The translations under genes were made by a program, and so were the position numbers. This document shows positions 1,408 to 63,101 of a stretch of DNA of 64,000 nt, one piece after another; within the stretch, counting starts at the first letter, position 1; each line of letters opens with the position of its first letter. The stretch comes from Candidatus Staskawiczbacteria bacterium (GTDB lineage Bacteria > Patescibacteriota > Minisyncoccia > Minisyncoccales > Staskawiczbacteraceae). The stretch spans positions 211,877-275,876 of the forward strand of contig JBAZUH010000001.1 in assembly GCA_041661545.1 (NCBI GenBank), read 5' to 3'. Under the pieces are notes generated by a model that was given only the letters and a program-made list of their open reading frames with translations, searched no databases and was not told the origin of the DNA.

Positions 1408-2658
1408 TTATTTACTGATTTTTTTAATTTTGCAATATTTTTGCAATATTTTTGGAACTTTTATTGAGCCGTCTTTTTGTTGATAATTTTCCATTATCAT
1501 TATTAAAATTCTTCCAATTGCAAAAGCTGTTCCGTTTAAAGTATGAACAAAATTAATTTTTCCTGCTTTATCACGATATCGTATATTTAATCTTCTTGCT
1601 TGAAAATCTGTACAATTTGAACAAGAATGCGTTTCTCTGTATTGTTTTTCTGAAGGCAACCATGTTTCAATGTCATATTTTTTTGCAGCTGGTCTTCCTA
1701 AATCTCCTGTGCAAATATTTATTAATTGATATGGTAATCCAAGAAGCTTCATCAACTTTTCTTCAATAGATAAAATTAATTCATGTTCTTTTTTAGAATC
1801 TTCTGGTTTAGAAAATACAACCATTTCTAACTTATCAAATTGATGAACTCTTAAAATTCCTTTTGTGTCTTTTCCATAACTACCCGCTTCCCTTCTAAAA
1901 CAAGTTGAATAACCAATATATCTTAATGGTAAATATTTTTCTTCTAAAATTTCATTTGTATGCATAGAAACAAGCGATTGTTCTGAAGTTCCAGCTAAAT
2001 ACATTTTATCTTCTGCTAAATAATAGGCTTCTTTTTCATCTGTGGCTTCAAAATAACCAGTGCCTCGCGCCATTTCTTCTTTTAATAAAACAGGTGGAAT
2101 TATGGGTACAAAACCTTGTTTTGTTACTATGTCCATAACCAAACTAATTAAAGCAAATTGAAGCAATGGTAATTCATTTTTTAAATATCCAAAGCGAGAT
2201 CCAGCAATTTTGCTAGCTCTTTCTGTGTCTATTAAGTCTAGGCTTTCTCCCAACTCCATGTAATCCTTTGGTTTTGCAAAAACCCAAATAGGCTTATGCC
2301 CTACATGCCTTAAAACAACATTTTCAGAGTCATCTTTTCCAATTGGAACATCTTCAAACGGAATATTTGGTAATTGTAAAAGCAAAATCTTTAATTCTGC
2401 ATCAATTTTTTCAAGTTCTGGTTCTATTTCTTTTATTTTAGATTTTATTTCTTTAGCTTGAACAAAAATCTCCTTATTTTCTGCCCCACCTCTGCTAATT
2501 TTGTTTTGTTCGGCTTTTAATGTTTCTATTTCTGTTAATAATTCTCTTTTGCCTTTGTCTAAAGCCAAAACTCTATCAACATCAACGTTGATATTTTTAT
2601 CTTTGCAAGCTTTTTTTACTATTTCACTATTTTCTCTAATAAAATTTAAATCTAACAT
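1408..2658 (-). CDS. serS: seryl-tRNA synthetase
   Basis: 416-aa ORF with an N-terminal coiled-coil arm and class II core motifs (FRREAGS, GTAFAIGR). Confidence 0.95.
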   Translation of the reverse strand: MLDLNFIRENSEIVKKACKDKNINVDVDRVLALDKGKRELLTEIETLKAEQNKISRGGAENKEIFVQAKEIKSKIKEIEPELEKIDAELKILLLQLPNIPFEDVPIGKDDSENVVLRHVGHKPIWVFAKPKDYMELGESLDLIDTERASKIAGSRFGYLKNELPLLQFALISLVMDIVTKQGFVPIIPPVLLKEEMARGTGYFEATDEKEAYYLAEDKMYLAGTSEQSLVSMHTNEILEEKYLPLRYIGYSTCFRREAGSYGKDTKGILRVHQFDKLEMVVFSKPEDSKKEHELILSIEEKLMKLLGLPYQLINICTGDLGRPAAKKYDIETWLPSEKQYRETHSCSNCTDFQARRLNIRYRDKAGKINFVHTLNGTAFAIGRILIMIMENYQQKDGSIKVPKILQKYCKIKKISK

Positions 2659-2683
2659 ATTTTTTATTTATTAATATATGCTC

Positions 2684-3415
2684 TTAGTCCTCAATTCCCC
2701 AAATTTTTAAAACTCTTCTCTTCCACAATATTCGTCTTTTATTGCGAATATTTTCAGATTCAGGATATTTTAATGCTGGGATTCTTTCCCCCTTTTTTCC
2801 TAAATTCATAGAATCTGTCATGGTCAACCTGTCGACCAACACGTCCATGGCCCATTTTTGTTTTTGTTTCGGCATTTTTTTGAGTTCGGCTGAAATTTGC
2901 GCCCTATATTGCTTAATTTTATCACCAGTAACCATCTCAGACATTTCGGCGATGGGCGATGTGGGAAATGAGAGCTCGTCTCCTTTTAAAAAAGCACGTA
3001 TGTCGCGCTTAATTGCGTCTATATCTACATTTACGATCCAAACTTCAATTTTAGTCCCATTTTTTTCATGATTCTCTCTGCAAAAATACTCAATAGCCCG
3101 ATTAAACGCATCGTTCTCTGCAACGTCATTCACTTTCGAAAGGTCGCGTAACACATTGATATCAATATCAGAGGATTTCAAATTATATCCATTTACACTT
3201 GACCCATAAGGTGATACACCAATAAACGCTCCGTATTCAGATAAAAATTTATCAAAATCTTTTATAATTTCTAATCTCTTCCAATTTGGTTCACCCTCAA
3301 CATCTCTTGGTGAATATAGTTTAGTTTCCACTCTTCTTTTTTGGAGATCTACATCGTCGTCGATTATCTCTGGCACGAGTTCATCCTCTTTATTTTTTGG
3401 TTCCCTGGGTTCCAT
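2684..3415 (-). CDS. nucleotidyltransferase-domain protein (Pol-beta superfamily)
   Basis: 243-aa ORF. YGSSVNGYNLKSSDIDINV fits the G-S-x(n)-D-x-D NTase signature. Confidence 0.55.
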   Translation of the reverse strand: MEPREPKNKEDELVPEIIDDDVDLQKRRVETKLYSPRDVEGEPNWKRLEIIKDFDKFLSEYGAFIGVSPYGSSVNGYNLKSSDIDINVLRDLSKVNDVAENDAFNRAIEYFCRENHEKNGTKIEVWIVNVDIDAIKRDIRAFLKGDELSFPTSPIAEMSEMVTGDKIKQYRAQISAELKKMPKQKQKWAMDVLVDRLTMTDSMNLGKKGERIPALKYPESENIRNKRRILWKRRVLKIWGIED

Positions 3416-3420
3416 ATTTT

Positions 3421-4884
3421 TTATTGTTTAGGTTTCATTAATGGGAATATTTGGCACTCGCGGGCTGGTTTATCCATTAAAAAGGAAAACAATCTTTCAG
3501 ACACTCCAAATCCGCATGTTGGTGGCATGCCATGCTCTAAAGCCTCAACAAAATCTTTATCATACATTTGCGCTTCATCGTCTCCTGCGTCTCTTAAATT
3601 TTGCTGTTCTTGAAATCTTTCTGCTTGGTCAATTGGGTCGTTAAGCTCAGAATAACCTTTGCCATTTTCTGAACCAGCTAAAATTACTTGAAATCTTTGA
3701 ACAAGTTTAGGATTTTTTTCCATTCTTTTTGCTAAAGGCTCCATTATAATTGGAACATTTATTAAAAACCCAGGACCAGATATATTTTTTCTACAATATT
3801 TCCATAAATTATCTATTGCCCTTGTAATATTAAACCCCTTTTTGTCGTAATTAATTTTTAATTTCTGCAAAGCTTTTTCTATTTCTGGCAGGGTGGCTTC
3901 ATTTATATTTACACCGGTATATTTAGCAATAGTTGACATATAGTCATATTTTTCCCATTTTTTTCCTAAATCAATATCAAATTCTTTAATTTTAAATTTT
4001 AAAGTTCCAAAAGTTTTTTTAGCAACATATTTATACATTTCTTCTACAAGTTCCATTCCTTTTTCATAATCAGCATATGCCCAGTAAAATTCCATTTGAG
4101 TATAATCTTGCAAGTGTTCTGCGTCCATGCCTTCATTTCTAAATTGTCTGCCAATCTCAAAAGTTTTTTCAAAACCAGCAACCATTAATTTTTTTTGCCA
4201 AAGTTCGCCCATAGAAATCCTTAAATAAACGTCTAAATCTAAGGCGTTATGATGAGTTAAAAATGGCCTGGCATCTGCTCCACCAGGAGTTGTTTCTAAA
4301 ACCGGTGTTTCTACCTCTAAAAATTGTTTTTCAACTAAAAATTCTCTCATAGAAGCCCAGAAAACTGTTCTTTTTTTAACCATTTCTTTTACTTCTGGAT
4401 TGAAAATAATGTCTAAATACCTTTTTCTTAAACATTCTTCAACATCAGTAATTCCGCACCATTTATCTGGTAGTGGCAAAAGTGCCTTTGAGAGCATTTT
4501 ATAATCTTCTGCTATAATACTTTTTTCTCCTCGTTTAGTTGTAAATAATTTTCCTTTTATTTCTACAAAATCTCCTATATCAAAAACATCTAAGAAGAAT
4601 TGATAACCTTTTTCACCCAACTTATCTATTTTTATTAATCCTTGAATTTTAGCAGAGCCGTCATTTATATCTATAAAGGTTGCACCGCCATGCCCTCGCA
4701 TTGCCATAATTCTTCCTGATAAAACATAATCTTTTTTAGTTTTAAAGAATTTATTAAATTGCGCCAAAGCCTCTGCCACAGAATGAGTTCTGTTTGTTTT
4801 TGCAGGATATGCTAAAAGCCCGGCTGTTTGTAGCTTTTTTAATTTGTTTATTCTTGTTTGTCGTAGCTCTTCAATTGTAGGCAT
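3421..4884 (-). CDS. lysS: lysyl-tRNA synthetase, class II
   Basis: 487-aa ORF with an OB anticodon-binding N-terminus and a class II core (FRNEG, GGFGVSERL-type C-terminus). Confidence 0.95.
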   Translation of the reverse strand: MPTIEELRQTRINKLKKLQTAGLLAYPAKTNRTHSVAEALAQFNKFFKTKKDYVLSGRIMAMRGHGGATFIDINDGSAKIQGLIKIDKLGEKGYQFFLDVFDIGDFVEIKGKLFTTKRGEKSIIAEDYKMLSKALLPLPDKWCGITDVEECLRKRYLDIIFNPEVKEMVKKRTVFWASMREFLVEKQFLEVETPVLETTPGGADARPFLTHHNALDLDVYLRISMGELWQKKLMVAGFEKTFEIGRQFRNEGMDAEHLQDYTQMEFYWAYADYEKGMELVEEMYKYVAKKTFGTLKFKIKEFDIDLGKKWEKYDYMSTIAKYTGVNINEATLPEIEKALQKLKINYDKKGFNITRAIDNLWKYCRKNISGPGFLINVPIIMEPLAKRMEKNPKLVQRFQVILAGSENGKGYSELNDPIDQAERFQEQQNLRDAGDDEAQMYDKDFVEALEHGMPPTCGFGVSERLFSFLMDKPARECQIFPLMKPKQ

Positions 4885-4977
4885 ATTTATAAATTTAAAA
4901 GTTTAAATTACTTTATTCTACCAAAATTATAATATACAGTAAACCCCGTTAAAAATGATTTCTAACGGGGCAAGCAG

Positions 4978-5006
4978 TTGACGTTATTTTATCAACATGA
5001 TATTGT
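4978..5006 (+). promoter_or_regulatory. sigma70-type promoter of GC-rich cassette 1
   Basis: TTGACG, 17 nt, TATTGT, preceded by aTGa (extended -10). Same architecture as the rnpB promoter at 53423. Confidence 0.5.
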
Positions 5007-5042
5007 TTTAATATGTAACTTGAAAATTAGCGAACCAGCACC

Positions 5043-5240
5043 ATGAAAACAACATATACCCAAAGAACGGTTAAGCTTAGTAACAGGCACCGGGGGTCCA
5101 AATATGCGCCCAAATGGTTTATCAGGAAGCTGAAGAGGCTTAAAGAAAAGGGCTGGGTGCAAATCGCTCACCGCTCGGGACGTCTTAAGAATTTCGTCTA
5201 CGTAGTTCTTCAAAGACCAAAATGTCGTAGAACTGGTTGA
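5043..5240 (+). CDS. hypothetical small basic protein (cassette 1)
   Basis: 65-aa ORF in a GC-rich segment. KLKRLKEKGW resembles RKRLEELEKLGW of the next ORF, suggesting paralogy and a possible winged-helix fold. TGA stop. Confidence 0.45.
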   Translation: MKTTYTQRTVKLSNRHRGSKYAPKWFIRKLKRLKEKGWVQIAHRSGRLKNFVYVVLQRPKCRRTG

Positions 5241-5243
5241 AAT

Positions 5244-5576
5244 ATGAAAAAAGCGAATACAGCAATTCAGAACTATATTTCTGACAGGACACTTGCCTGT
5301 GTCCGTAAGCGTCTAGAAGAGTTAGAAAAATTGGGCTGGCGCATTCACCATTATTCGATCTGGGGCCCTAAAGGACTTGTCATTGTATTCCATCGCCTAG
5401 CTACTTACTTGTTTCCTTCTGCAAAGATAGAAAGATGTGTCTGCCTTAACGACTTTCCAGAATGGCGTGACCTGATTGTTCGACTTGCAAGTCGCGGTTG
5501 GAGATTTCTGTCTTTCCAAAGTAGCTCTTCTCCCAAGGCTCCTTACAGATTTCGCCAGCTAATCGAAAAAGGCTAG
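5244..5576 (+). CDS. hypothetical protein (cassette 1)
   Basis: 110-aa ORF starting 4 nt after the previous stop, with GC-rich composition. Confidence 0.5.
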   Translation: MKKANTAIQNYISDRTLACVRKRLEELEKLGWRIHHYSIWGPKGLVIVFHRLATYLFPSAKIERCVCLNDFPEWRDLIVRLASRGWRFLSFQSSSSPKAPYRFRQLIEKG

Positions 5577-5678
5577 AACAACTGCCATGATTTGCTTTAA
5601 TTACTGGTTTTTATTCCCTCGGCTTGGAAAGAGTCACTTCATCAAACGGAAGAAAGTTGATAAGAAAGACAAGACGTC

Positions 5679-5840
5679 ATGCCCACACTTGTAACTATTG
5701 CTGTTTGGATTTTGGCCCTGATAGTCTCTTTCAATGTGTCTAGGGGCGTTAACATAGTTGTTTTTATTGTTGCTTCGATTATCACACTTGCTATTGCATG
5801 CAAGGCTGAAAAGCAATCTTCAAAAAGGACGCCTAAATAG
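5679..5840 (+). CDS. small two-TM membrane protein (cassette 1), not in ORF track
   Basis: Hand translation gives MPTLVTIAVWILALIVSFNVSRGVNIVVFIVASIITLAIACKAEKQSSKRTPK (53 aa), followed directly by a terminator. Confidence 0.45.
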   Translation: MPTLVTIAVWILALIVSFNVSRGVNIVVFIVASIITLAIACKAEKQSSKRTPK

Positions 5841-5854
5841 CGTTCTCTTTTTTT
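5827..5854 (+). terminator. intrinsic terminator of cassette 1
   Basis: ggacgc/gcgttc stem followed by tcttttttt. Confidence 0.6.
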
Positions 5855-5926
5855 GAGTGCGAAATATATTTTCATTAATCGCACGAAACCCCGCCGAAGC
5901 CTTGGCGAAGGCAGGTGCAGTAATTT
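5855..5926 (+). repeat. F element copy A (about 72-nt structured repeat)
   Basis: gagtgcgaaatatattttcattaatcgcacgaaaccccgccgaagccttggcgaaggcaggtgcagtaattt. It matches the reverse complement of 9297-9370 except for a few substitutions and one indel, and abuts the mrdA stop codon. Confidence 0.85.
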
Positions 5927-5927
5927 G

Positions 5928-7859
5928 CTATTTCTCCGTAAAATACCAATTTAAAACGTCTTTAGCTACATTTAATGTGACAACTCCAAAACTATTTACA
6001 CTTTCAACTGTAACAACTAAAACAATTTCGGGATTTTCATATGGAGCAAAAACCGATGACCAAACATTATACGCATCTTTTTTGCCTATTTCGGCGGTTC
6101 CTGTTTTTGCACCCGAAGAAACTGGAAGACTCCTTAAAACCGATGATATGCCATAATCTTCTTTAACGCCATCTCGCATGCCCTCCCTAACTATTTGTAT
6201 GTTTTCTGCATCAATAAAATTACTTCTTATAATTTGTGGTTCAAATTGTTTAACTAGTTGGTTTGAATCTGCAGAAACAACTTTATTTACAATTTGTGGT
6301 TTATATAATGTTCCGCCATTGGCAATTGCACAATAAGCCGATGCAACCTGCAAAGGAGTTGTTTGCAAATCTGACTGACCAATTGCAAGGTTATAAGTAT
6401 CTCCATCCCACCATGGTTCACCTTTTACTGTTTTTTTCCATGTTGGATCAGGAATAAACCCAGAAAATTCTCCTGGCAAATCTATGCCAGTTTTTTGATC
6501 CCAACCAAAAAGTGATAAATATTGTTTAATTTTTGTGGGACCCAGTCCTTGCTGACCCTCATAACCACCGCCCACAACATAAAAATAAATGTTAGAAGAA
6601 ACTGCTATTGCTTCTCTCATATCAACCCAACCATGTGGTTTTACTCCCCCATATCTATAAGCTACATTTGGATCGTATTTACTACGAACCAAAATATAAC
6701 CGGGGTCATTTATTTTTTTATCTGGTGAAATTATTTTTTCTTGAAGAGCTGCGGCAGCTTCAAACGGTTTTATTGTAGACCCTGTAGGATATTTTGCTGA
6801 AATAGCTCTATTAAAAAATGGCTGAGATGGGTCGTTTATAATTTTGCTATATTCTTCTTGAGATATGCCTCCAGAAAAGGCATTGTCATCATAAGCTGGA
6901 TAAGAAACTAGTGCTAAAACAGCTCCTGTTCGTGGATCCATTGCAACTGCAGCCCCCTTTTTACCTCCCATTTTTTTTATACTATCAGCCAGAGAATTAT
7001 AAATTCTTGTTTGCAGTTCTGCGTCTATATTAAGAACTAAATTATTGCCCGGAATAGATGGCACAGATATTTGTTTTTCATCTTGTGCATATGCTTGAGC
7101 GGGTTTTAAATTTATTAGTTTAGATTGACCTGGAGTTCCTCTTAAATAACTCTCGTAATATTTTTCTAAACCTGTTTTTCCAATGTAATCATTTATAGAA
7201 TAGCCCCTGCTATCAGAATACTCATCTTTGTTAATTCTGGCTGTATAACCTAAAACTTGAGAAAAAATTGGGCCTAAAACATATTCTCTTGAAGTGTTTT
7301 GTTGAATTCTACAACCTTTTAAATCTTCTATTTTTGTTTCTAGCAATAAAAGTTTTTCGTGGCTCATACTATCTACTAATAAAACATCCGATGATTCTGT
7401 TTTTTGAATTTTATCTAATATTTCGTAGCTACTTATGCCAACAATATTAGAAATATCGTCAATTTCTTGATTAATTGCATTTGAAGACACCGAAAAATAG
7501 GCTCTATCACAAATTAGGTCGTATGCTGGAGAGTTTAAAACAAGTTTTTTCATATTCTTGTCGTAAACTATTCCTCTTATAGGAACAATTAAATTAACAC
7601 TGCCTTTATTGTTTTCTGCTTGCGTGTGTAATTTTTTACCACTTATAATTTGCAAATAAAAAACTTTAGAAAATAATATAATTGCTAAAATAAAAAAAAT
7701 ACCAAACAATATGTGAGATATTCTTTCTTTTATAGGCACTTCAAATTTTTTTTCTGACAAACCAAGCTCTTCTTCTTTAGACTGAGCTAATTTATCCAAA
7801 AAAACCTCATGAGGTTCTATATCAACATTTGATTTTTTTATTTTGTAAATTTTAGCCAT
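5928..7859 (-). CDS. mrdA: penicillin-binding protein 2 (elongasome transpeptidase)
   Basis: 643-aa ORF with an N-terminal TM helix, STIKP (SxxK), SSN and KTGT motifs, and mreC-mreD-mrdA synteny. Confidence 0.9.
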   Translation of the reverse strand: MAKIYKIKKSNVDIEPHEVFLDKLAQSKEEELGLSEKKFEVPIKERISHILFGIFFILAIILFSKVFYLQIISGKKLHTQAENNKGSVNLIVPIRGIVYDKNMKKLVLNSPAYDLICDRAYFSVSSNAINQEIDDISNIVGISSYEILDKIQKTESSDVLLVDSMSHEKLLLLETKIEDLKGCRIQQNTSREYVLGPIFSQVLGYTARINKDEYSDSRGYSINDYIGKTGLEKYYESYLRGTPGQSKLINLKPAQAYAQDEKQISVPSIPGNNLVLNIDAELQTRIYNSLADSIKKMGGKKGAAVAMDPRTGAVLALVSYPAYDDNAFSGGISQEEYSKIINDPSQPFFNRAISAKYPTGSTIKPFEAAAALQEKIISPDKKINDPGYILVRSKYDPNVAYRYGGVKPHGWVDMREAIAVSSNIYFYVVGGGYEGQQGLGPTKIKQYLSLFGWDQKTGIDLPGEFSGFIPDPTWKKTVKGEPWWDGDTYNLAIGQSDLQTTPLQVASAYCAIANGGTLYKPQIVNKVVSADSNQLVKQFEPQIIRSNFIDAENIQIVREGMRDGVKEDYGISSVLRSLPVSSGAKTGTAEIGKKDAYNVWSSVFAPYENPEIVLVVTVESVNSFGVVTLNVAKDVLNWYFTEK

Positions 7860-8338
7860 CTTTTATAAATAAAGAAAAATGCAGTTGCAAAAATAGAGCT
7901 ATAAACTAAAGAATAAATAATATTTAATGATAAGTTAATAACCATTTTATTTGGATCTAAAAAGTATAAATATAGGTCTTTTAGCAAAATATACGCTAAT
8001 AAAAATATTACAAAAAGTGGTAAAAAATAAATAAATGGGTAAGATTCTGCGGTATTTTTTAGTGATGAAAGCACTTTTTTTAATAAAATGCTTAAAATTA
8101 TCAATAAAATAATAGAAGGACCTACATAAGTATAAGAAAAAATATCTATAAAAAAACCAGCTATTACAGCAAGCAAGATTACTTCCAATTTAGAGGGAGA
8201 GAAAAAAACTAGTAAAAAAAATAACGTAAAAACTAAATTAGGAGCAACTCCAAACAAGCTAAAGTGATTAAAAAAACTATTTTGCAATAATACAAAAATA
8301 TAAAAAATGAAAATTACGGGTACGATTTTTTTCCACAT
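7838..8338 (-). CDS. mreD: rod shape-determining protein MreD
   Basis: 166-aa polytopic membrane ORF between mreC and mrdA. It overlaps the mrdA start. Confidence 0.7.
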   Translation of the reverse strand: MWKKIVPVIFIFYIFVLLQNSFFNHFSLFGVAPNLVFTLFFLLVFFSPSKLEVILLAVIAGFFIDIFSYTYVGPSIILLIILSILLKKVLSSLKNTAESYPFIYFLPLFVIFLLAYILLKDLYLYFLDPNKMVINLSLNIIYSLVYSSIFATAFFFIYKRWLKFTK

Positions 8339-8341
8339 TTT

Positions 8342-9244
8342 TTAATTGTCTTTTTTATAATTTGTAATTACAAATACATTATCTGCATTTTTAACATCAA
8401 AAAACAAACTAATTTTTGCTTGTTGAAATGGTTTTTGGTCATTTTTTATATTTTGTGTAATTTTGCCTACTAGCAAGTCTTTGGGAAATGATTTTTCTAA
8501 TGAAGATGTTACTAAAACATCATCTGAATTTATTTCGCTATTTACTGGAATTAAGTCTAAATAAGCTGACAATGCCCCACTTCCTCTAATTACACCAGCA
8601 ATTTCAACTGTTTCTGGAGCTGGATCTGTAGACGTAGTTGTAGTTCCATCTGGATTAACGATAATTATTTCACTAGCAATATTTTGCTGTTGTACTTTAA
8701 CATTTATTACGCTATTTTTGTTTGATATAAGCATTATATCAGAAAAGTTTTTATAAACTTTAAAAACTTTTCCAACTAAAACATTTTGTTGATTTATTAC
8801 TGGCATTCCTATAGAAACGCCATCTACTGAACCTTTGCCTATAGAAAGAATATCTTTATCTAAGCCAATAACTCCTGCCATAACAAATTGAAACCCTGTA
8901 TTTTGACAAGATATAGAAACATCGCTTTGCGCTCTATTGCCCTGCTCTATAGATTGTAAAAATGCAACTTGATAAAGTAAATTTTGATTTTGTTTTTTTA
9001 AGTCTTCGTTTTCTTTTGTTAAGGATCCAGACTTGAGTAAAGAGCTTATCAAACCAGACGAAGATGTTCCAGCTGTCCAGAAAGTTTTTTGAATTGCACT
9101 AGATATTGTAAAAAAATAATTTCTAACTGGTGACACAAAAATATTTAAAATAATTAAAAATAATAAAATAGCACCCAAAATAATTAAAAATTTTGGCCAA
9201 TTTCTTTTCTTTTTATTTATTGAAAACTTGCTTATAGCATTCAT
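8342..9244 (-). CDS. mreC: rod shape-determining protein MreC
   Basis: 300-aa ORF with an N-terminal TM helix, a coiled coil (ENEDLKKQNQNLLYQVAFLQ) and beta-rich domains. Confidence 0.85.
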   Translation of the reverse strand: MNAISKFSINKKKRNWPKFLIILGAILLFLIILNIFVSPVRNYFFTISSAIQKTFWTAGTSSSGLISSLLKSGSLTKENEDLKKQNQNLLYQVAFLQSIEQGNRAQSDVSISCQNTGFQFVMAGVIGLDKDILSIGKGSVDGVSIGMPVINQQNVLVGKVFKVYKNFSDIMLISNKNSVINVKVQQQNIASEIIIVNPDGTTTTSTDPAPETVEIAGVIRGSGALSAYLDLIPVNSEINSDDVLVTSSLEKSFPKDLLVGKITQNIKNDQKPFQQAKISLFFDVKNADNVFVITNYKKDN

Positions 9245-9255
9245 AATTATATGTC

Positions 9256-9284
9256 ATTTTACCTTGTTAAAAGCCTGCGGTCAA
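9256..9284 (-). promoter_or_regulatory. mreC operon promoter (very short leader)
   Basis: Minus strand TTGACC, 17 nt, TAAAAT. The -10 element ends only 11 nt before the mreC ATG. Confidence 0.5.
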
Positions 9285-9296
9285 ATTTTATTCAGT

Positions 9297-9370
9297 AAAT
9301 TACTGCACCCGCCTTCGCCAAGGCTTCGGCGAGGTTTCGTGCGATTAATGAAAACATATATTTCGCACTC
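9297..9370 (-). repeat. F element copy B (inverted relative to copy A)
   Basis: The reverse complement reads gagtgcgaaatatatgttttcattaatcgcacgaaacctcgccgaagccttggcgaaggcgggtgcagtaattt. Confidence 0.85.
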
Positions 9371-9398
9371 AAAAAAAATGCCCACTTGGTTATTGGGC
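9371..9398 (-). terminator. intrinsic terminator of cassette 2
   Basis: Minus strand gccca...tgggc stem followed by a T8 run, directly followed by F copy B. Confidence 0.6.
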
Positions 9399-9418
9399 GC
9401 CTTCAAAAAGAAGACCTA

Positions 9419-9679
9419 TTACTTAATTGCTTCGAGTTCTGCTTTGTATTGCTCTTGCCACGAAGCCAGAATGGATTTAGCAACAGTATCATCATCTGGG
9501 AGATAACTAACAGCTTTTCCTTTTTCCGCAACAAACTGAGTAGCCCAATCAATGAGATTGGTGGAAATTGAGACCAACACTCGAGCTGGTTCAAACTTCA
9601 GCATTCTCAGAAAGATTTTCTTGGTGCTCCGAGACTGCTTCTCTATGTCATCAATAAGCCATTGCTCAAATAGTGTCAT
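9419..9679 (-). CDS. hypothetical protein (cassette 2)
   Basis: 86-aa ORF with a 4-nt ATGA overlap with the upstream ORF. GC-rich. Confidence 0.5.
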   Translation of the reverse strand: MTLFEQWLIDDIEKQSRSTKKIFLRMLKFEPARVLVSISTNLIDWATQFVAEKGKAVSYLPDDDTVAKSILASWQEQYKAELEAIK

Positions 9680-9951
9680 TTTGGTTCCTCCCCGAGCTTT
9701 AGGCCCGCGTCTACTTCAGCGGCTTTTTGTTGCAAATACCTCATGTATTCTGCCTGCTTATCTTCTTTAGGTGCGGATCCTTGGCTAGCGGACAATTGGC
9801 TCCTGATGCCATCCATTAATCCAATACCAACTCCTATGCAAAGAAACTGGTTGGCAATATCATAGATTTTTCTGCGTTGATGTGGCTGTAATGACTGTGC
9901 GTATTCGTCTAGCTCGGTTAGTGCGGGCGTTGCTTCAAATGTAGCGCTCAT
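9676..9951 (-). CDS. hypothetical protein (cassette 2)
   Basis: 91-aa ORF with one central hydrophobic segment. Confidence 0.5.
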   Translation of the reverse strand: MSATFEATPALTELDEYAQSLQPHQRRKIYDIANQFLCIGVGIGLMDGIRSQLSASQGSAPKEDKQAEYMRYLQQKAAEVDAGLKLGEEPK

Positions 9952-9982
9952 TTTAGGTGGTCTTTCTTGATATTGGTGTGAT

Positions 9983-10636
9983 TTACTTTGTTCGAATGGC
10001 TCGAAACGCCCACTTAATGGCCTGGAAGGCCAAGAACAGGGGAATTGTTATTTGCGAGATGACCGGGTTGAACACCGGCAACATCCGTGTGTGTTTCTTG
10101 ATTGTGTCATTAGTAACTTTTGACGAATCAAAGAACATAAATTCAAACAGAGTAACTATTGGCACAAACCACAAAGAGGTCCACAGTTGGGCCTTTATGA
10201 CAACCAATGCGCCAAACAGGCTCCTAAGCTCTGGGTGGACGCGCATTCCCCACCAAAAATATGCAGCTGCTATTACTGAGATTATTTCAACTGCCCTGAT
10301 TAGCGAAAAAATAAACCTCACCTGAACTTTCTTGTTTTTGGCCAAATATTGAATCAGAACTATGCCAACAAAGACAAGGGTCATTACGCCCATTATGTAA
10401 ATCTCTGTATCTGCTATTTTGGGAGAATATACAATCAACATCATGATTACCGACGTCGCCATCAGCAACCTACCTAAAATAGAGACCAGTTTCATTCCCA
10501 GCGGATACGGAGCTTGGTCGCGCAGGTGATTTTGTTGCCACTGCCGAAGCTCTTTGACGTTGCTCCTCATGATGAAATAAGAAATCCAAAAAATTACAGA
10601 CCAAAACAATGGGTGTTCAAACACGTTGATATTCAT
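9983..10636 (-). CDS. polytopic membrane protein (cassette 2)
   Basis: 217-aa ORF with about six hydrophobic helices. GC-rich relative to its flanks. Confidence 0.6.
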   Translation of the reverse strand: MNINVFEHPLFWSVIFWISYFIMRSNVKELRQWQQNHLRDQAPYPLGMKLVSILGRLLMATSVIMMLIVYSPKIADTEIYIMGVMTLVFVGIVLIQYLAKNKKVQVRFIFSLIRAVEIISVIAAAYFWWGMRVHPELRSLFGALVVIKAQLWTSLWFVPIVTLFEFMFFDSSKVTNDTIKKHTRMLPVFNPVISQITIPLFLAFQAIKWAFRAIRTK

Positions 10637-10683
10637 AATTTTATTTCAAGGTTCGGGTTGCTTCTATTCGTAGAAGTCTTTAT

Positions 10684-10712
10684 AATATATGATATTTTTA
10701 CCTAATTGTCAA
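10684..10712 (-). promoter_or_regulatory. promoter of cassette 2
   Basis: Minus strand TTGACA, 17 nt, TATATT. The leader contains a cttcta/tagaag hairpin. Confidence 0.5.
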
Positions 10713-10774
10713 CGATTATGCAATAAAAAACCGCTAAATTAATAACGGTTTTTTTATTTTAGAATCATGAATAA

Positions 10775-10882
10775 TGTAGGAGAGCTACCTACTCTCGCGT
10801 TGCCACTACCATCGGCCTTGGAAGATTTCACTTCTGAGTTCGAAATGGGATCAGGTGGAGCACTTCCAGTATAGCTCCCTTA
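10775..10882 (-). rRNA. rrf: 5S rRNA
   Basis: The reverse complement contains CCCATTTCGAACTCAGAAGTGAAA and a GCCGATGGTAGTG core. The terminal helix is GTAAGGGAGC/GCTCTCCTAC. Confidence 0.9.
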
Positions 10883-10969
10883 CATTATTCACGATTTTTA
10901 CAAAATACCTAAAATCTGTATCTATTTAAACTTACGCTTTTTGTGAATCTTCGTATACTCAAATGCTAA

Positions 10970-14016
<3,047 letters not shown>

Positions 14017-16971: not shown

Positions 16972-17015
16972 AATATTTAATAGATTATAGCATCCCAGCG
17001 AATTCCGCGCCACTA

Positions 17016-17044
17016 TTGACAAGCCTTTTCTAATATGATATAAT
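17016..17044 (+). promoter_or_regulatory. promoter of cassette 4a
   Basis: TTGACA, 17 nt, TATAAT with an aTGa extended -10. This is a near-consensus promoter. Confidence 0.6.
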
Positions 17045-17212
17045 ATATCTAGAGTATGAAGCCAAGTACTCTTGCAAGATAAAAGGATTGTTTCGTGTCT
17101 TTGCGGGCACATCGCCTTTGCGGGCGAATAAACAATCTGGGTACAGAGCCCTATCTTGTACTTGAACGGCACATTGACACAACGACAACCGCCCCAATGG
17201 GGCACCAAACAA

Positions 17213-17962
17213 ATGACAAAGATAGTGACTGCAGCGTCTCCCCAGAGGGAGCAACTGACGGACAGCCAAGCCAATAGTCTCGCCCTCGGAGTCATCGGAT
17301 ATCACTTCACCACGGCGCTAATCGCCTGGCTGAAAAATCCGAAAATCGCTGACTTCCGCGACGACGCGGAGTCCTGTTTCTTGAAAGTCGAGAAACGGGC
17401 AAAGGCATGGGGCTGGTTGGCCTTCTGGGTCGGCCTCACCATCGGGTTCTTAGGCATCGCAGTATGCGAAGGCATCACCCGTGGTTTTGTCGAAGCCTTC
17501 TTCCACGGATGGTTGATGCAGGCGTCGGCGATAATCGGCGTGCTAACGCTGATTATCGCCTTCTTCTACGGATTTGGCTACGAGCTCGGCTCGAATCGTC
17601 GGCCGGGTGACACAACCCGAATGGTAGCCAAGATGTGGAAACCTTGGCGGAAGAAAATCGTTTCCTCGGGGGTACTTTCGGACTTCGCCTCTACGCTCAA
17701 ATGGAGGTACAAGGATGCCGAAACCGGATCTATTCTCCTGAGGCAGATCGCGAGTTACTCCTTCGGTGGCAGCGAGCTGGAGATAGTTCTCAAATCGACC
17801 CTCGCCAACCTTGCTGACGAAGCCGTCAAAAACTTCCAGGACGAGGTGCTTGATGGCAGCAAACGTGGCCAGCAACGTCACCGTCAACAGTTCGGCCAGA
17901 TTGACAAGATCGGGCAAGAGCTCGGTTTTGAAAAACTAGACTGGAAACGGCTCGACTCCTAA
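17213..17962 (+). CDS. membrane protein (cassette 4a)
   Basis: The ORF read from ATG 17213 begins MTKIVTAASPQ. It has 3-4 hydrophobic helices and is very GC-rich. Confidence 0.55.
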   Translation: MTKIVTAASPQREQLTDSQANSLALGVIGYHFTTALIAWLKNPKIADFRDDAESCFLKVEKRAKAWGWLAFWVGLTIGFLGIAVCEGITRGFVEAFFHGWLMQASAIIGVLTLIIAFFYGFGYELGSNRRPGDTTRMVAKMWKPWRKKIVSSGVLSDFASTLKWRYKDAETGSILLRQIASYSFGGSELEIVLKSTLANLADEAVKNFQDEVLDGSKRGQQRHRQQFGQIDKIGQELGFEKLDWKRLDS

Positions 17963-18050
17963 CCGAGCAGATAGGGTGCATATCATCTGATACCACCGAG
18001 TAATATCGGGCAGTGATTTGCATCAAAACAAAGAAACTAACAACAACGAA

Positions 18051-18085
18051 AGCGCGTGTGGCTTGGTAAACCCACGCGCTCTTTT
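18051..18085 (+). terminator. terminator of cassette 4a
   Basis: agcgcgtgtgg...cccacgcgct stem followed by cttttaat. Confidence 0.5.
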
Positions 18086-18108
18086 AATACATTTAGCATT
18101 ATTCACAG

Positions 18109-18137
18109 TTGACACAAAGCTTTTTATATAGTATAAA
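18109..18137 (+). promoter_or_regulatory. promoter of cassette 4b
   Basis: TTGACA, 17 nt, TATAAA. Confidence 0.5.
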
Positions 18138-18195
18138 GATTATGGAACATTTACAAGATAAATGAGTTTGGCGAGTGCCAACACGAAACTTCCAG

Positions 18196-18549
18196 ATGTT
18201 CCAAACGTCCAAACAACATATAAACGCCATGTGCAAAATCGCCATCCAGGAACTCCCCCTCGTTTCCCACAGCCCGCGGTGTGCCTGTGGGAAAACGGCC
18301 ATCCAAAAGGCCGTAATCAAAAAACCCACGTTTGTAGTTTCCGTAAACTGCTGCGGTGACGTGGCCTGCGTGCAAGCGGCCCAAAAAAGCGTCGGTGAGA
18401 AGCATCGAGCCCGCCTCGAGGACATCCAACGAGTTCGTCAAGCCAAAGCGGCCCAAAAAGCCGCCGCGCGCGCGGCGAAGAAGGAGAGGTCGTTGCGCGG
18501 CTCCAAAGAGACCTTCGTCGGTAGGGACTTCGATCCCCTGAAGGTCTAA
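18196..18549 (+). CDS. hypothetical Cys-containing protein with a Lys/Ala-rich tail (cassette 4b); frame uncertain
   Basis: This is the longest plus-strand frame between the promoter and terminator. Several overlapping ORFs exist on both strands in this GC-rich stretch. Confidence 0.35.
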   Translation: MFQTSKQHINAMCKIAIQELPLVSHSPRCACGKTAIQKAVIKKPTFVVSVNCCGDVACVQAAQKSVGEKHRARLEDIQRVRQAKAAQKAAARAAKKERSLRGSKETFVGRDFDPLKV

Positions 18550-19015: not shown

Positions 19016-19120
19016 AGCGAGGCAGTCAATTTTCAGCGTATTTCAGGACACAAAGTGCCTGACCAAGCCATTTAGACGCGAAGCGTATCAATGGCGTTAG
19101 CAGAAAATTGACTGCCGAGC
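19016..19120 (+). repeat. R element copy 1 (105-bp structured repeat with 14-bp terminal inverted repeats)
   Basis: ggcagtcaattttc...gaaaattgactgcc termini. It differs at 4 positions from the copy at 57024-57128. Confidence 0.85.
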
Positions 19121-19126
19121 GAAAAA

Positions 19127-21402: not shown

Positions 21403-22443
21403 TTATATTACTAAAAAATTCGTTATTATTTTTACTAATTTTTCTTTTTCCGACCTGTCGCTCACCGCAATCAAAAGCGCAAGCGCAGTAAGCGCGTTAT
21501 CATTAATTTTCTTTTCACCGTTTTCTTTATAAGAGTAATTACTCTTATCTAAAAAGTATGCAAACAGAAATGAGGCAATCCTTTTATTACCATCAACAAA
21601 TGGATGGTCTTTAATAATAAAATAAAGCAAATGCGCCGCTTTTTCCTCTATAGATGGATAAAGTTCTCTTTTATCAAAAGTTTGGTAAATATTCCCAACA
21701 ATGCCCTTTAATTTTTCGCTGTTTTCTTGCCCAAACAATTCGCTTGCCTCTTTTTTAGCAACAAGGCTTTTCTTAATTTCTTCAATAACATTTGATGCAC
21801 ATGCATAGTTTAAAACAAATTTACCCCTTCCTCGCTTTACCAGAGAAACTTTTTCTGTATCATACTGCTCAAGCAAGGTTAAAGTTTTTGAGTAATCACT
21901 CAATAAACTTAAAATTTCCTGCTCTTGCCCAGCCATCAACTCGTGACCAGCTTTCTTTTGTAAAAAGTCGATAGTGCTTTGTAATTCTCTAAATTTATTC
22001 TTGGTATCAAGCAGTCTTTTATCATTTATTGCATAACCCTTCACTAAATAATCTTTTAAGGTCTTAGTAGCCCAAATTCTGAATTGCGTAGCCCTTTTGG
22101 AATTAACCCTATAGCCAACCGAAATAATCGCATCCAAATTATAAAATTTGACATTTTGTTTTTGCGTTTTACCCTTAATGGCACCATGTCTAGTGGTATG
22201 TTCCAAAATGGAACTAACCACTTTTTCGTCCAATTCTTTGCTTTTAAAAATATTCTTGAGGTGCTTGGTTATTGCTGGTCTCTGCGTACCAAAAAGAAGC
22301 GCAATTTTGTCTTGCGTAAGCCAAATAGTTTCTTTATCTAAAGAAATATCAATCCTTATTCTTTTATCTGATGTTTTATAAATAACAATTTCTCCCCGCC
22401 CCTTTGAAGCCTTGCTCGAAAGAAGATTTTCTTTCTTTGACAT
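21403..22443 (-). CDS. RhuM-like N-terminal domain fused to a Fic/Doc domain
   Basis: 346-aa ORF. The N-terminal FYNLDAIISVGYRVNSKRATQFRIWAT is RhuM-like, and the C-terminal HPFVDGNKR is the Fic/Doc active-site motif. Confidence 0.7.
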   Translation of the reverse strand: MSKKENLLSSKASKGRGEIVIYKTSDKRIRIDISLDKETIWLTQDKIALLFGTQRPAITKHLKNIFKSKELDEKVVSSILEHTTRHGAIKGKTQKQNVKFYNLDAIISVGYRVNSKRATQFRIWATKTLKDYLVKGYAINDKRLLDTKNKFRELQSTIDFLQKKAGHELMAGQEQEILSLLSDYSKTLTLLEQYDTEKVSLVKRGRGKFVLNYACASNVIEEIKKSLVAKKEASELFGQENSEKLKGIVGNIYQTFDKRELYPSIEEKAAHLLYFIIKDHPFVDGNKRIASFLFAYFLDKSNYSYKENGEKKINDNALTALALLIAVSDRSEKEKLVKIITNFLVI

Positions 22444-22511
22444 TTCAATTATTTTTTATTATTTTAATTATTTTATTATATAACAACTAAAAAACTATCT
22501 CAATAATATAC

Positions 22512-22558
22512 AAAAAAAGGCCACGTTTCGCTAGGCTGTTGCTTTTGCGAAACGTGGC
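22512..22558 (-). terminator. terminator of cassette 5
   Basis: 12-bp perfect stem gccacgtttcgc/gcgaaacgtggc followed by a T7 run on the minus strand. Confidence 0.7.
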
Positions 22559-22583
22559 ATGATAGGCTCACTGAGCCGTGTTC

Positions 22584-23507
22584 TTACTTGCCCTTCTTCG
22601 GCGGACGGGGCTTCTTCCGTCGCGCGGTGAGCTTGGTGGCGGGCGCAGGCGCTTCGGGTGAAGCGGGCGCTTCGGCTACCAACTGCCATTCAGGACTCAG
22701 TCCATCCGGAGTGGGAACTTCAGCGACCGGAGGCTGCTCAGCCGACTCGGAAGTCGGCGGAGCGGGTTGCTCGGGAACAGGCTCGGTGGGCGGCTGAGCG
22801 GTGGGCTCGGGCGTAGGTGCTTGCGGTTCCCAACGAGAGGCTTCGGGAAAAGGCCCTGGGAAAAGACCTCCGCTTCCAAACAGAACTTCGAATGGGTCGG
22901 AACGGCGGGGTTCCCCAAAGAACTCCGGACGGAGACGACCACGCGCATCCATAAATCCGGGCGGATATGGGGATGGCGGTGGACCATACATGTCGCCAAA
23001 AAGGCTGTCGAGGCCCGCCAAAGCGCCGAGATTCATGGCGCCAAGGTCTATGACCGTGATCTCCGGCTCAATGGCCACGATGTGCCACCACTTCTTCACG
23101 GCCAGTGTCCGTTTCTCAAAACTTGCCATGGCGCACTGCTGGGGGAAGACTTCCTTGATCCCCCTCCACAAGAGACGGTTAAGGATAGTCAATTCCTCTT
23201 GCACGATGTCTAGTTCGGCGACCGATCGGCTCATGCGCTTTTTGATGTCGGCACCATTGGCCAGAACCATGGAAAATTCGTCCATCAAACGCATCTGGCA
23301 ATAGCCCCCTATGCTTTCCACTTCTCGCATGCAGATCGCTCTAAGCGTTGCCACCGCCTTCAAATGGTTCGGCAAAATGCCGATGAAGGTATCACCTTCC
23401 TGGATAAGCCCTTGGGGCTCTTCATACTCGGCGGCAGGCATGGTCTCAATCCTGTCAAGCAGAGCTCGCAGAAATCTCGTCGTTACGCTTCCCTTTGGTT
23501 GTTTCAT
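22584..23507 (-). CDS. hypothetical protein with a Pro/Ala-rich C-terminal tail (cassette 5)
   Basis: Start taken at MKQPKGS (ATG). One sample stretch is 45 of 60 nt GC. The C-terminus is low complexity (PEPTAQPPTEPVPEQPAPP) and ends in KKPRPPKKGK. Confidence 0.55.
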   Translation of the reverse strand: MKQPKGSVTTRFLRALLDRIETMPAAEYEEPQGLIQEGDTFIGILPNHLKAVATLRAICMREVESIGGYCQMRLMDEFSMVLANGADIKKRMSRSVAELDIVQEELTILNRLLWRGIKEVFPQQCAMASFEKRTLAVKKWWHIVAIEPEITVIDLGAMNLGALAGLDSLFGDMYGPPPSPYPPGFMDARGRLRPEFFGEPRRSDPFEVLFGSGGLFPGPFPEASRWEPQAPTPEPTAQPPTEPVPEQPAPPTSESAEQPPVAEVPTPDGLSPEWQLVAEAPASPEAPAPATKLTARRKKPRPPKKGK

Positions 23508-23598
23508 GGCTTCAATTCGGTTGTTCGTGGGGTTGGTTTGGTTTTTCAGTTTCCGCAAACGCGCGGAAACTAAAAGTCACCTTTTAGGTGCTACAAAT

Positions 23599-24556: not shown

Positions 24557-24609
24557 CAGGTTGCCCCTGCCTACGCCAAGGCTACGGCGAGGCAAGCATG
24601 GGCAACCTG
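24557..24609 (+). repeat. intercistronic GC-rich hairpin repeat, copy 1
   Basis: caggttgccc...gggcaacctg 10-bp outer stem enclosing tgcctacgcc-aaggctac-ggcgaggca. Confidence 0.85.
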
Positions 24610-24876: not shown

Positions 24877-24935
24877 CCTCAGGTTGCCCCTGCCTACGCC
24901 AAGGCTACGGCGAGGCAAGCATGGGCAACCTGAGG
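24877..24935 (+). repeat. intercistronic GC-rich hairpin repeat, copy 2
   Basis: cctcaggttgcccc...gggcaacctgagg. The interior is identical to copy 1. Confidence 0.85.
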
Positions 24936-25246: not shown

Positions 25247-25299
25247 CAGGTTGCCCCCGCCTACGCCAAGGCTACGGCGAGGCAAGCATGGGCAACCTG
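25247..25299 (+). repeat. intercistronic GC-rich hairpin repeat, copy 3
   Basis: caggttgcccccgcctacgccaaggctacggcgaggcaagcatgggcaacctg. Confidence 0.85.
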
Positions 25300-29699: not shown

Positions 29700-29732
29700 T
29701 CCCGCCCCAGCGGAATCCCCGCTGGGGCGGGA
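29700..29732. repeat. GC-rich perfect hairpin (tcccgccccagcgg-aatc-cccgctggggcggga)
   Basis: Related to the in-CDS elements at 49043 and 57784 (cccgcc...gcgggatcccgc...ggcggg). Confidence 0.7.
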
Positions 29733-31573: not shown

Positions 31574-31647
31574 ATTATTATATGTTAATTATATTATATA
31601 TTTTTACTCTACGCCTAAAAATTAAATTTGGCAAGTAATGTCTATTT

Positions 31648-31700
31648 ATCCCTCAAAAATGGTAGCACTTTTCGTGTCGAAAAGCGCTATTTTTGGGGAT
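31648..31700 (+). repeat. E element copy 1 (53 nt)
   Basis: atccctcaaaaatggtagcacttttcgtgtcgaaaagcgctatttttggggat, 8 nt from terminator D1. Confidence 0.8.
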
Positions 31701-31708
31701 TTTCGTTT

Positions 31709-31746
31709 AAAAAAAGAGCCCAAGGTTGCAGGTGCAACAAGGGGCA
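31709..31746 (-). terminator. terminator D1 (38-bp unit identical to D2)
   Basis: The minus strand reads tgccccttgttgcacctgcaaccttgggctcttttttt, starting 8 nt after the rSAM stop. Confidence 0.75.
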
Positions 31747-33509: not shown

Positions 33510-33547
33510 AAAAAAAGAGCCCAAGGTTGCAGGTGCAACAAGGGGCA
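33510..33547 (-). terminator. terminator D2 (identical to D1)
   Basis: Same 38-bp sequence as 31709-31746, starting 8 nt after the stop of the small TM gene. Confidence 0.75.
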
Positions 33548-36067: not shown

Positions 36068-36912
36068 ATTATCCTCTAGAAACCTAGAGTTGATGTTCCC
36101 ACCGTACGAGCGGATTTCCCGCATACGGCGAGCTCTAATGCATTTTTTGTTTAATAAGATATAATCTTTTTAAACCAGAACTTGTCAAATGTTCTTTTTT
36201 CTTAATCCTTTTCATTATTTCGCAAAAAATTTTAAAATCGTATGCTTTTGATTTTAAATTTAATTTATTGCGCTTAAAAAATGGAATAATAGTTTCTTCT
36301 AAATCATTTCTATTTGTTACTTCGTATCGGTAACAATTTTGATGGTTTAGCCGTGTATCTTTTTGAAAATACACGTTTCCGCATTCAAAATATTTTTTCA
36401 AATCATATAAAATATCTTTATCTTTTTCTATGAGTTTGATATAAAATCTTGGTTCGGCTTTAACTCTTCTTTCATTTTCTAATTTTTTTGCCGGATTTTT
36501 AATATAAACAGTGAAGCTTCCTTCACCATCTATTAATCCAACAATATAATTAGGATTAAGTGACTTGTTAGAGAGATTCCTTGGCATAATATACTATATT
36601 ATGTTTAATATGAATCAGCTGACTTCTGACGCAGCGTTAGTAGTTTCATTATACTACGTCAGATCTCCCCGGGTCAATATATTTTCTTTTCCTGACATCC
36701 TTAGCTAGGCGTTGTGGTATGTTCTTCACTATGCTCACCGCCGATCATAGCTCGAACGCCTATTTTTATGCTAGGGCTACCATTTGTCGCAAAACCCTCT
36801 GGCGTCTACCTCGCGGTAGTTCGCCTGTTTGTTGACTACTCTCTGTTGAGTCTTAACAACAGAGGAAAAGATTTTAACTTTTTAGAAAATATACCTGCCG
36901 GGCGCGTTTATT
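36068..36912 (-). mobile_element. intron/intervening sequence in 16S rRNA at about E. coli position 1399/1400
   Basis: Exon 1 ends ...GAATACGTTCCTGAGTCTTGTACTCAC and exon 2 resumes CGCCCGTCAAGCC. The insertion splits the universal 1392-1406 block and carries a homing-endonuclease ORF. Confidence 0.85.
36135..36587 (-). CDS. LAGLIDADG homing endonuclease (single-motif type)
   Basis: 150-aa ORF inside the 16S intron. YIVGLIDGEGSF is the LAGLIDADG motif. Confidence 0.85.
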   Translation of the reverse strand: MPRNLSNKSLNPNYIVGLIDGEGSFTVYIKNPAKKLENERRVKAEPRFYIKLIEKDKDILYDLKKYFECGNVYFQKDTRLNHQNCYRYEVTNRNDLEETIIPFFKRNKLNLKSKAYDFKIFCEIMKRIKKKEHLTSSGLKRLYLIKQKMH

Positions 36913-37381: not shown

Positions 37382-37413
<32 letters not shown>

Positions 37414-57128: not shown

Positions 57129-57152
57129 AAAAAAAATTTATTTGCCAAGCGT

Positions 57153-63093: not shown

Positions 63094-63101
63094 TTTCATT
63101 T

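Follow-up and report, generated by a model that had tools for sequence, protein, structure and literature searches.

The 64,000-nt stretch of a Candidatus Staskawiczbacteria genome analyzed here (contig JBAZUH010000001.1; referred to as the window, with position 1 as its first letter) contains the operon mrdA-mreD-mreC, and on either side of it lies one copy of a short repeat, which we named F (copies F1 and F2). The gene order is lysS (-), cassette 1 (+), F1, mrdA-mreD-mreC (-), F2, cassette 2 (-), 5S and 23S rRNA (-), the cassettes being two units of small genes. The mre operon is located directly downstream of 23S-5S on the same strand. As stated in a preliminary description made from the sequence alone, F lies at the 3′ ends of both small-gene units, each of which comprises a promoter-like site, three small open reading frames (ORFs) and a terminator. 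F1 fills the whole space between the T-run of the cassette 1 terminator and the mrdA stop codon (to within 1-2 nt), and F2 the space from the T-run of cassette 2 to 9 nt short of the conserved -35 region of mreC, where the promoter block AAAATTTGACCGCAG..GGTAAAAT begins, which is kept in the related locus L163. On the minus strand, TTTTT follows the hairpin at 5826-5846, and the mre transcript probably terminates there as well. Before reaching this bidirectional terminator hairpin, the mre transcript crosses the reverse complement of F1.

A scan for repeats detected inverted arms at 5848-5929 and 9294-9375 (82 nt) that are 87% complementary without gaps. In a gapped alignment the two copies differed by a single 2-nt indel (TG, located in the loop of the first hairpin) and three substitutions, corresponding to an identity of about 94-95% over 84 columns (E = 6e-26, blastn within the 64-kb window). 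A 33-nt piece of F gave no chance match in 100 shuffles, and the longest unbroken identity between the arms was 22 nt. The near-identical inverted repeat of the preliminary description was recovered at a slightly greater length than noted, and its similarity survived the gapped alignment. The placement of each copy right after a terminator T-run was confirmed as well, since the first letters shared by F1 and F2 are those of the T-run (TTTTTTTGAGTGCGA..., the last being ...GGTGCAGTAATTTRCT). The hairpins preceding the T-runs differ (AGGACGC..GCGTTCT at 5826-5846 vs. GCCCA..TGGGC at 9379-9397). Because these hairpins are unrelated and the homology starts at the T-run, the two copies follow two distinct terminators, each of which lies directly 5′ of the same element. 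Two independently assembled Logan contigs (n = 2, SRR18595301), 100% identical to window positions 6206-10802 and 1852-6231, cover the F2 and F1 junctions with both flanks, which makes an assembly artefact as origin of the pair so unlikely that we regard it as ruled out.

F consists of two separate hairpins and is not one end-to-end palindrome. Hairpin A, formed by GTGCGA, an AT-rich loop of 16-18 nt and TCGCAC, is predicted in both copies, in agreement with the preliminary description. It is followed by the spacer GAAA, a GC-rich hairpin and the tail TGCAGTAATTT. The ends of F (GAGTGCGAAAT... and ...GGTGCAGTAATTT) are not complementary, i.e., there are no terminal inverted repeats, and a possible target duplication comprises TTT at most, which is indistinguishable from the terminator T-run. 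A promoter-like site was not found inside F, and a small RNA with a promoter of its own was rejected for this reason. Rfam 15 contained no match for F even at E ≤ 10, and permissive E-values returned terminator look-alikes only. Group IIC introns insert behind terminators and have GUGYG at their 5′ end. A remnant of such an intron, which the start with GA-GTGCG after the T-run might suggest, was rejected due to the lack of an Intron_gpII match and of D5/D6; the internal loop of the GC-rich hairpin is a symmetric 3x3 loop, unlike the bulge of group II D5. An attC site was likewise rejected, since neither end of F fits the core sites RYYYAAC and GTTRRRY.

The GC-rich hairpin of F is a copy of a module with the full form CTTGYC-CGCCGWAGCCTTGGCGWAGGC-GGR (30 nt). 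The fold predicted for this module has an unpaired CTTG tag, a 7-bp stem, a symmetric GWA/GWA 3x3 internal loop and a GC-CTTG-GC top, with an energy of about -14 kcal/mol. In the window, the 21-mer CGCCGWAGCCTTGGCGWAGGC is present in F1, F2 and three copies of a second repeat, D1 (24569-24589, 24892-24912 and 25259-25279, minus strand), giving five module copies in 64 kb. It was not found in the other GC-rich repeat families of the window. The proposal that one core is common to F and the other GC-rich repeats therefore applies to the three D1 copies and fails for the remaining families. D1 is a 53-nt repeat in which the module is nested in the loop of an outer 10-bp hairpin. Each of its copies occupies one of three short gaps that succeed each other in a row of co-directional genes and lies 9-13 nt ahead of the start codon that follows; the neighboring small genes (PspC-like, DUF3850/ASCH and two unknowns) form an alternating gene/palindrome array with these copies. 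The F copies have AAAC at positions -6 to -3, where the module has its CTTG tag. Two variants that are rare elsewhere among the matches listed, T at -1 (13 of 146) and A at +21 (3 of 146), are shared by F and D1. These shared rare variants point to a common intragenomic source, that is, one module lineage which would have been recombined into two repeat families. The positions of all these features are compiled in Table 1.

Table 1. Positions of F, its parts, D1 and the neighboring genes and signals in the window.
Feature	Position	Strand	Remarks
F1 repeat copy	5848..5929	+	T-run 5848-5854; element proper ~5855-5926
F1 hairpin A	5857..5884	+	GTGCGA, 16-nt AT-rich loop, TCGCAC
F1 GC-rich module copy	5889..5915	+	CCCCGCC GAA GCCTTGGC GAA GGCAGG; without CTTG tag
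F2 repeat copy, inverted	9294..9377	-	T-run 9371-9378; element proper ~9297-9370
F2 hairpin A	9339..9368	-	loop 2 nt longer (TG indel)
F2 GC-rich module copy	9308..9334	-	CCTCGCC...GGCGGG
D1 copy a	24557..24609	-	full module with CTTG in loop of CAGGTTGCCC/GGGCAACCTG hairpin
D1 copy b	24880..24932	-	
D1 copy c	25247..25299	-	
lysS	3421-4884	-	
Cassette 1	4944..5847	+	GC 0.42; 5′ hairpin 4944-4970; promoter-like site 4978-5006
Cassette 1 ORFs	5043-5240, 5244-5576, 5679-5840	+	65, 110 and 53 aa
Cassette 1 terminator	5826..5854	+	hairpin + T7
mrdA (PBP2)	5928-7859	-	operon bracketed by F1 and F2
mreD	7838-8338	-	
mreC	8342-9244	-	whole mre operon 5928..9244
mreC promoter-like site	9256..9284	-	TTGACC, 17 nt, TAAAAT
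Cassette 2 terminator-like hairpin	9371..9398	-	GCCCA, 9-nt loop, TGGGC, A, T8
Cassette 2	9399..10712	-	GC 0.42; promoter-like site 10712-10684
Cassette 2 ORFs	9983-10636, 9676-9951, 9419-9679	-	217, 91 and 86 aa

Outside the window, 30 IMG/VR contigs contain the 21-mer CGCCGWAGCCTTGGCGWAGGC, and so do at least 120 stretches of GTDB genomes, which represent at least 13 phyla. The hosts among the matches listed belong to the Acidobacteriota, Verrucomicrobiota, Bacteroidota, Pseudomonadota, Planctomycetota, Nitrospirota, Desulfobacterota, Bdellovibrionota, Elusimicrobiota, Armatimonadota, Omnitrophota, Marinimicrobia and Patescibacteria. In the same set of matches, conservation runs past the searched 21-mer (C-T-T-G-Y-C on the 5′ side, G-G-R on the 3′ side) and positions -2 and +23 covary (T-A in 57 cases, C-G in 52), indicating that the unit is a 30-nt hairpin. 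The module is identical in sequence across phyla and across GC contents of 0.35-0.76. Repetitive extragenic palindromic sequences (REPs) of the CGTC type from alphaproteobacteria were found in an empty form, with GCGAGCGnAGCGA directly followed by AGCAATCCA (L081 and L147, the latter at L147:3548), and in a filled form, ...AGCGA[CTTGTCCGCCGAAGCCTTGGCGAAGGCGGA]AGCAATCCA... (L078, L098, L122, L143, L147). Their comparison revealed an exact 30-nt insertion, without target duplication, in the loop of Bradyrhizobium-type REPs. At AT-rich loci the module is present in frame inside ORFs. In a GT4 glycosyltransferase (L151) it forms a 9-residue insertion relative to solved homologs. It is apparently also in frame at the C-terminus of a PorD-like ferredoxin (L068) and, possibly twice, in the leucyl-tRNA synthetase LeuRS (L132). 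An inverted loop-variant partner (CCGCCTWCGCTAAAGCTWCGGCGG) often accompanies the module in Acidobacteriota; such doublets occur at L043, L045 and L050 and none is present in the window.

The searchable literature contained nothing relevant on the module sequence or its peptides, Rfam gave no match, and a plasmid collection yielded partial or chance matches only. An origin from adapters or contaminants was rejected, since the module is located mid-contig, in isolate genomes and in frame in genes. In summary, the module behaves as mobile DNA, often inserting into hairpin loops or in frame into genes, and we infer that it is moved by a single-strand DNA (HUH-type) mechanism. An enzyme was not identified, and no protein family was linked to the module in about 150 loci.

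The surroundings of F were compared with those in five relatives (loci L161, L163, L165, L168 and L169; MreC 63-66% identical); the nearest other MreC proteins are 63-68% identical. The order rRNA (23S-5S) ... mreC-mreD-mrdA ... lysS-serS was found in the same relative orientation in all five relatives and in the window. The mrdA-lysS gap is 58 nt in L161 and 184 nt in L163, both without content, about 590 nt in L169 and about 1.05 kb in L168, both with small ORFs, 1.04 kb in the window, where it holds cassette 1, and 1.9 kb in L165, where five small ORFs lie on the opposite strand. The gap upstream of mreC (5S-mreC) varies as much. The variability of both gaps among the relatives indicates that they are hot spots for small lineage-specific ORFs. 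In the window they correspond to 4885-5927 and 9245-10775, and each relative examined carries different small ORFs there, so that the gaps flanking mreCD-mrdA offer a defined place for studying gene gain in minimal genomes (Staskawiczbacteria). L168 has further small opposite-strand ORFs between lysS, serS and a hydrolase gene. Neither F nor its GC-rich core was found in the five relatives by sensitive blastn, and the small-ORF insertions at both of their hot spots are without F.

The two cassettes are GC-richer than the mre operon (0.42 vs. 0.30) and, F aside, have nothing in common at the DNA or protein level. None of the six cassette ORFs gave a result above threshold in Pfam, PHROGs, PADLOC or NCBIfam, and the 110-aa protein of cassette 1 had no homolog among 5.8 billion proteins (ORFan). 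The cassette 1 segment is an insertion that L161 and L163 do not have. For the 217-aa and 86-aa proteins of cassette 2, orthologs are encoded between 5S and mreC in L165 (31% and 52% identity), which indicates that cassette 2 is at least partly old and vertically inherited. Of the earlier picture of two foreign units facing each other, the convergent arrangement holds, and the higher GC content and the absence of cassette 1 from relatives agree with it, whereas the L165 orthologs contradict a foreign origin of cassette 2.

Further copies of F were not obtained. The exact F junction pattern had no match in GTDB species genomes, two F patterns had no relevant match in IMG/VR, and nine matches in metagenome contigs of the Joint Genome Institute were all chance matches in high-GC DNA. 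A blastn search of phage genomes gave chance matches only (E about 1), a concatenated six-frame peptide query of F had no match among 5.8 billion proteins, and blastn within the 64-kb window detected nothing beyond F1 and F2 except the module. The Pfam scan for enzymes covered the cassette ORFs and 37 of the 68 window ORFs with a length of 110 aa or more. There was no Y1_Tnp match among the 37 ORFs, an invertase or recombinase was found neither within 3421-14009 nor among the other ORFs scanned, and no integrase (intI) was found in the set.

Short structured repeats are frequent in the window, which contains at least six families of them in 64 kb. One of these, D8, consists of 33-nt GC-rich palindromes (TCCCGCCnnAGCGGGATCCCGCTnnGGCGGGA) at 49044-49076, 57785-57817 and 29700-29732. 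Two copies lie in frame in core metabolic genes, one for a phosphoenolpyruvate (PEP)-utilizing enzyme of the PPDK/PEP synthase family (residues 532-543) and one for enolase, where D8 (residues 194-205) represents an 11-residue insertion relative to the enolases in the PDB. The third copy is apparently intergenic, and the D8 pattern was not found in IMG/VR. These in-frame palindromes together with the many repeat families indicate that this genome is permissive to small palindromic DNA.

On this basis, we favor, with a probability of roughly 0.55, the interpretation that F is a lineage-specific, non-coding mosaic repeat of the type of REPs and bacterial interspersed mosaic elements (BIMEs) that was recently duplicated into two permissive gaps. 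F would have been built from a private hairpin A, a short spacer and one truncated module copy, and its two copies would have arisen by transposition in trans or by ectopic conversion. That the duplication was recent is suggested by the 95% identity combined with unrelated flanks. F would then persist where an insertion of about 80 nt is harmless, i.e., in the gap that separates a terminator from a convergent stop codon and in that separating a terminator from the promoter that follows. The position of these gaps on both sides of the mre operon is explained by their being the variable hot spots of the family for small ORFs, and purifying selection would in any case leave copies placed exactly after the T-run. 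F probably has no dedicated function, and it has no known mobilizing enzyme. In itself it is ordinary, one more private repeat in a repeat-rich genome of the candidate phyla radiation (CPR), and it does not explain the arrival of the small-gene units.

We saw no evidence that F acts on the mre operon. An effect, if there is any, would most likely be exerted at the RNA level and be incidental. REPs of E. coli slow 3′-to-5′ mRNA decay, and by analogy the GC-rich hairpin of antisense F1 in the 3′ untranslated region of the mre transcript could do so.

Several observations weigh against the interpretation of F as a REP/BIME-type mosaic repeat. F is known from only two copies, both within the 64-kb window, and alone it folds barely better than shuffled sequences (z-scores of -1.7 and -2.0). 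The CTTG tag is missing from it, as are terminal inverted repeats and a clear target duplication, and no transposase, REP-associated tyrosine transposase (RAYT) or other HUH gene was found among the ORFs scanned. In addition, both copies start at the same point after the T-run, which might reflect targeting and not just tolerance.

REPs are located downstream of genes and between co-directional or convergent ORFs, are found nested in palindromes and in frame within genes, and are defined by an unpaired GTAG (or CGTC) tetranucleotide at one end (PMC3733652). The module resembles them as a short imperfect palindrome with an unpaired tetranucleotide at its 5′ foot that occurs singly, in inverted pairs (e.g., L043), nested, and in frame in genes including those of tRNA synthetases, and that forms mosaics with other short motifs, as in F. 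It differs in its tag, which is CTTG instead of GTAG/CGTC and which the F copy has lost, and in its distribution: REP families as a rule stay within one species or genus, but the 30-mer is spread over at least 13 phyla. Moreover, only two F copies and five module copies are present here, and no RAYT was found among the window ORFs scanned. With the defining tag absent, we class F as REP-like without assigning it to a named family. Bradyrhizobium REPs were described to have unusually long loops of the "GCGG/CCGC type" of up to 27 bp (Di Nocera et al., 2013; PMC3733652), and these loops may be the 30-nt module. Rickettsia palindromic elements (RPEs) are comparable as selfish palindromic DNA in the small AT-rich genome of a host-dependent bacterium, with in-frame insertions in genes as seen for the module in other genomes and for D8 in the enolase and the PEP-utilizing enzyme of the window. 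Unlike F, which is itself intergenic, most RPEs are 100-150 nt long, and they are genus-specific.

A tentative interpretation that puts the emphasis on the module is that it represents an actively mobilized, previously undescribed 30-nt (10-codon) hairpin of nearly invariant sequence that crosses phyla and is also present in phages, and that enters hairpin loops, intergenic gaps and, with the frame preserved, essential genes. The module might then be cut beside its CTTG tag by a trans-acting single-strand DNA enzyme, perhaps phage-borne, and F and D1 would record that it recently invaded a 738-kb CPR genome, possibly one without a gene for the enzyme, and was amplified there locally. Palindrome-associated transposable elements derived from IS200/IS605 (PATEs; Y1 HUH enzymes) show similar features. 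Like these, F has hairpins near both ends, no terminal inverted repeats and no clear target duplication, and the module has a conserved tetranucleotide by the foot of an imperfect hairpin and prefers hairpin loops, i.e., exposed single-stranded DNA. F differs from them in that no TnpA was found here and that its two hairpins have no relation to one another. What deserves attention is the module rather than F. Should the module be moved by a dedicated enzyme, it would rank with the smallest and most widespread of the known mobile units, and it would also be a source of spurious ORFs and of 10-residue inserts in protein databases.

Alternatively, F could be a functional RNA, acting either as a 3′-end stabilizer or back-up terminator, or as one strand of a panhandle of about 80 bp formed by F2 and antisense F1. 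In the latter version a read-through transcript from the rRNA/cassette 2 side would be cut by RNase III, as in rRNA processing, which would free the mre mRNA. The duplex of F2 and antisense F1 has a predicted energy of -140 kcal/mol, the operon directly follows 23S-5S on their strand, each of the five module copies of the window reads in the sense direction of local transcription, and the reverse complement of F1 lies in the 3′ untranslated region of the mre transcript, before the bidirectional terminator. Nevertheless, we consider a functional RNA unlikely. F2 is placed behind a terminator and upstream of the conserved mreC promoter, so that co-transcription would require read-through, and the fold of F is weak and without an Rfam match, while covariation cannot be shown from two copies. 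The absence of F from five syntenic relatives with the same operon arrangement speaks against a regulatory element of the operon, which would be expected to persist.

A role of F as the conserved 3′ end of mobile gene cassettes appears improbable. In this case, cassettes 1 and 2 would be two cargoes, and a recombinase or HUH enzyme would act at one end in the manner of attC sites, IS91/ISCR or IS200/IS605. Both F copies are indeed at the 3′ end of a unit, in the same orientation to it and directly after the terminator; cassette 1, an ORFan-containing and GC-richer segment absent from two relatives, has F1 as its boundary on one side; and with a hairpin near either end and with neither terminal inverted repeats nor a clear target duplication, F resembles IS200/IS605-derived miniature elements. 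On the other hand, two cassette 2 genes are syntenic orthologs of genes in the F-less L165, the hot spots of the five relatives received small ORFs without F, the cassettes have no common 5′ end, no recombinase or HUH gene was found among the window ORFs scanned, and the GC-rich half of F is a generic module that also occurs between ordinary genes and in at least 13 phyla. The preliminary description had considered F as a possible footprint of cassette delivery, a reading that finds no support in view of these F-less insertions and of the occurrence of the core in contexts unrelated to cassettes. With integron attC sites (55-140 nt) F shares the structured imperfect palindrome and the position at the 3′ end of small gene units, but the R′′/R′ sites (RYYYAAC/GTTRRRY) and intI were not found, and unlike integron cassettes the units here have their own promoter-like site and terminator, are not arranged in tandem and face each other. 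The cassettes themselves, not F, resemble phage morons in their own promoter-like site and terminator, their higher GC content and their variable content between conserved neighbors. In contrast to morons, they are located in a bacterial chromosome without phage context, and cassette 2 is partly conserved vertically.

The suggestion that the mre operon sits on an invertible 3.4-kb segment with F1 and F2 as its recombination sites, for which the 82-nt inverted repeats at both segment ends would speak, is hardly credible: the operon has the same orientation in all five relatives, inversion would turn an essential operon against the direction of the genes around it without any useful separation, no adjacent invertase or recombinase gene was found, unbroken identity does not exceed 22 nt, and the Logan contigs show the reference junctions only, where k-mer assembly could miss a minor isomer. 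From miniature inverted-repeat transposable elements F differs by the lack of terminal inverted repeats of 15-30 bp.

Two further repeats were observed in the window. A 111-nt direct repeat (95% identity) is present in two unrelated intergenic gaps at 19016-19126 and 57024-57134; it is predicted to fold into a three-way junction with a 14-bp closing stem (z-scores of -6.5 and -7.9 for the two strands) and was without a match in Rfam at E ≤ 1. The other repeat, a long hairpin of the form ATCCCTCAAAAATGGTAGC...GCTATTTTTGGGGAT (z-score of -6.9), occurs at 31643-31746, 33510-33547 and 63036-63108, at the 3′ side of GC-richer genes (a radical SAM gene at 31755-33128 and an ORF at 63170-63883). An identical 38-nt GC-rich hairpin follows it at 31709 and 33510. 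It is the sole repeat of the window that was also detected in a relative, where it forms a tandem pair in the mrdA-lysS hot spot of L165 (14469-14590).

The window also contains two GC islands. The first one (22500-23560; 54-61% GC vs. about 33% in the genome) carries an ORF for a 324-aa protein with a proline-rich C-terminal half and no Pfam match, and the gene for a RhuM/Fic-domain protein (21403-22443) adjoins this 60% GC island. The second one is located at 17000-18500 (51-54% GC). The rRNA genes are unlinked, with 23S-5S at 10776-14009 and 16S at 36861-38257 (only 1397 nt matched). An ORF for a LAGLIDADG endonuclease (36135-36587) lies just downstream of 16S. A palindrome of 24 nt that is almost perfect (ACGCCTTCACTTAAGTGAAGGCGG, 38309-38332) precedes the 5′ end of 16S by about 50 nt and may be a processing stem or a REP-like element.

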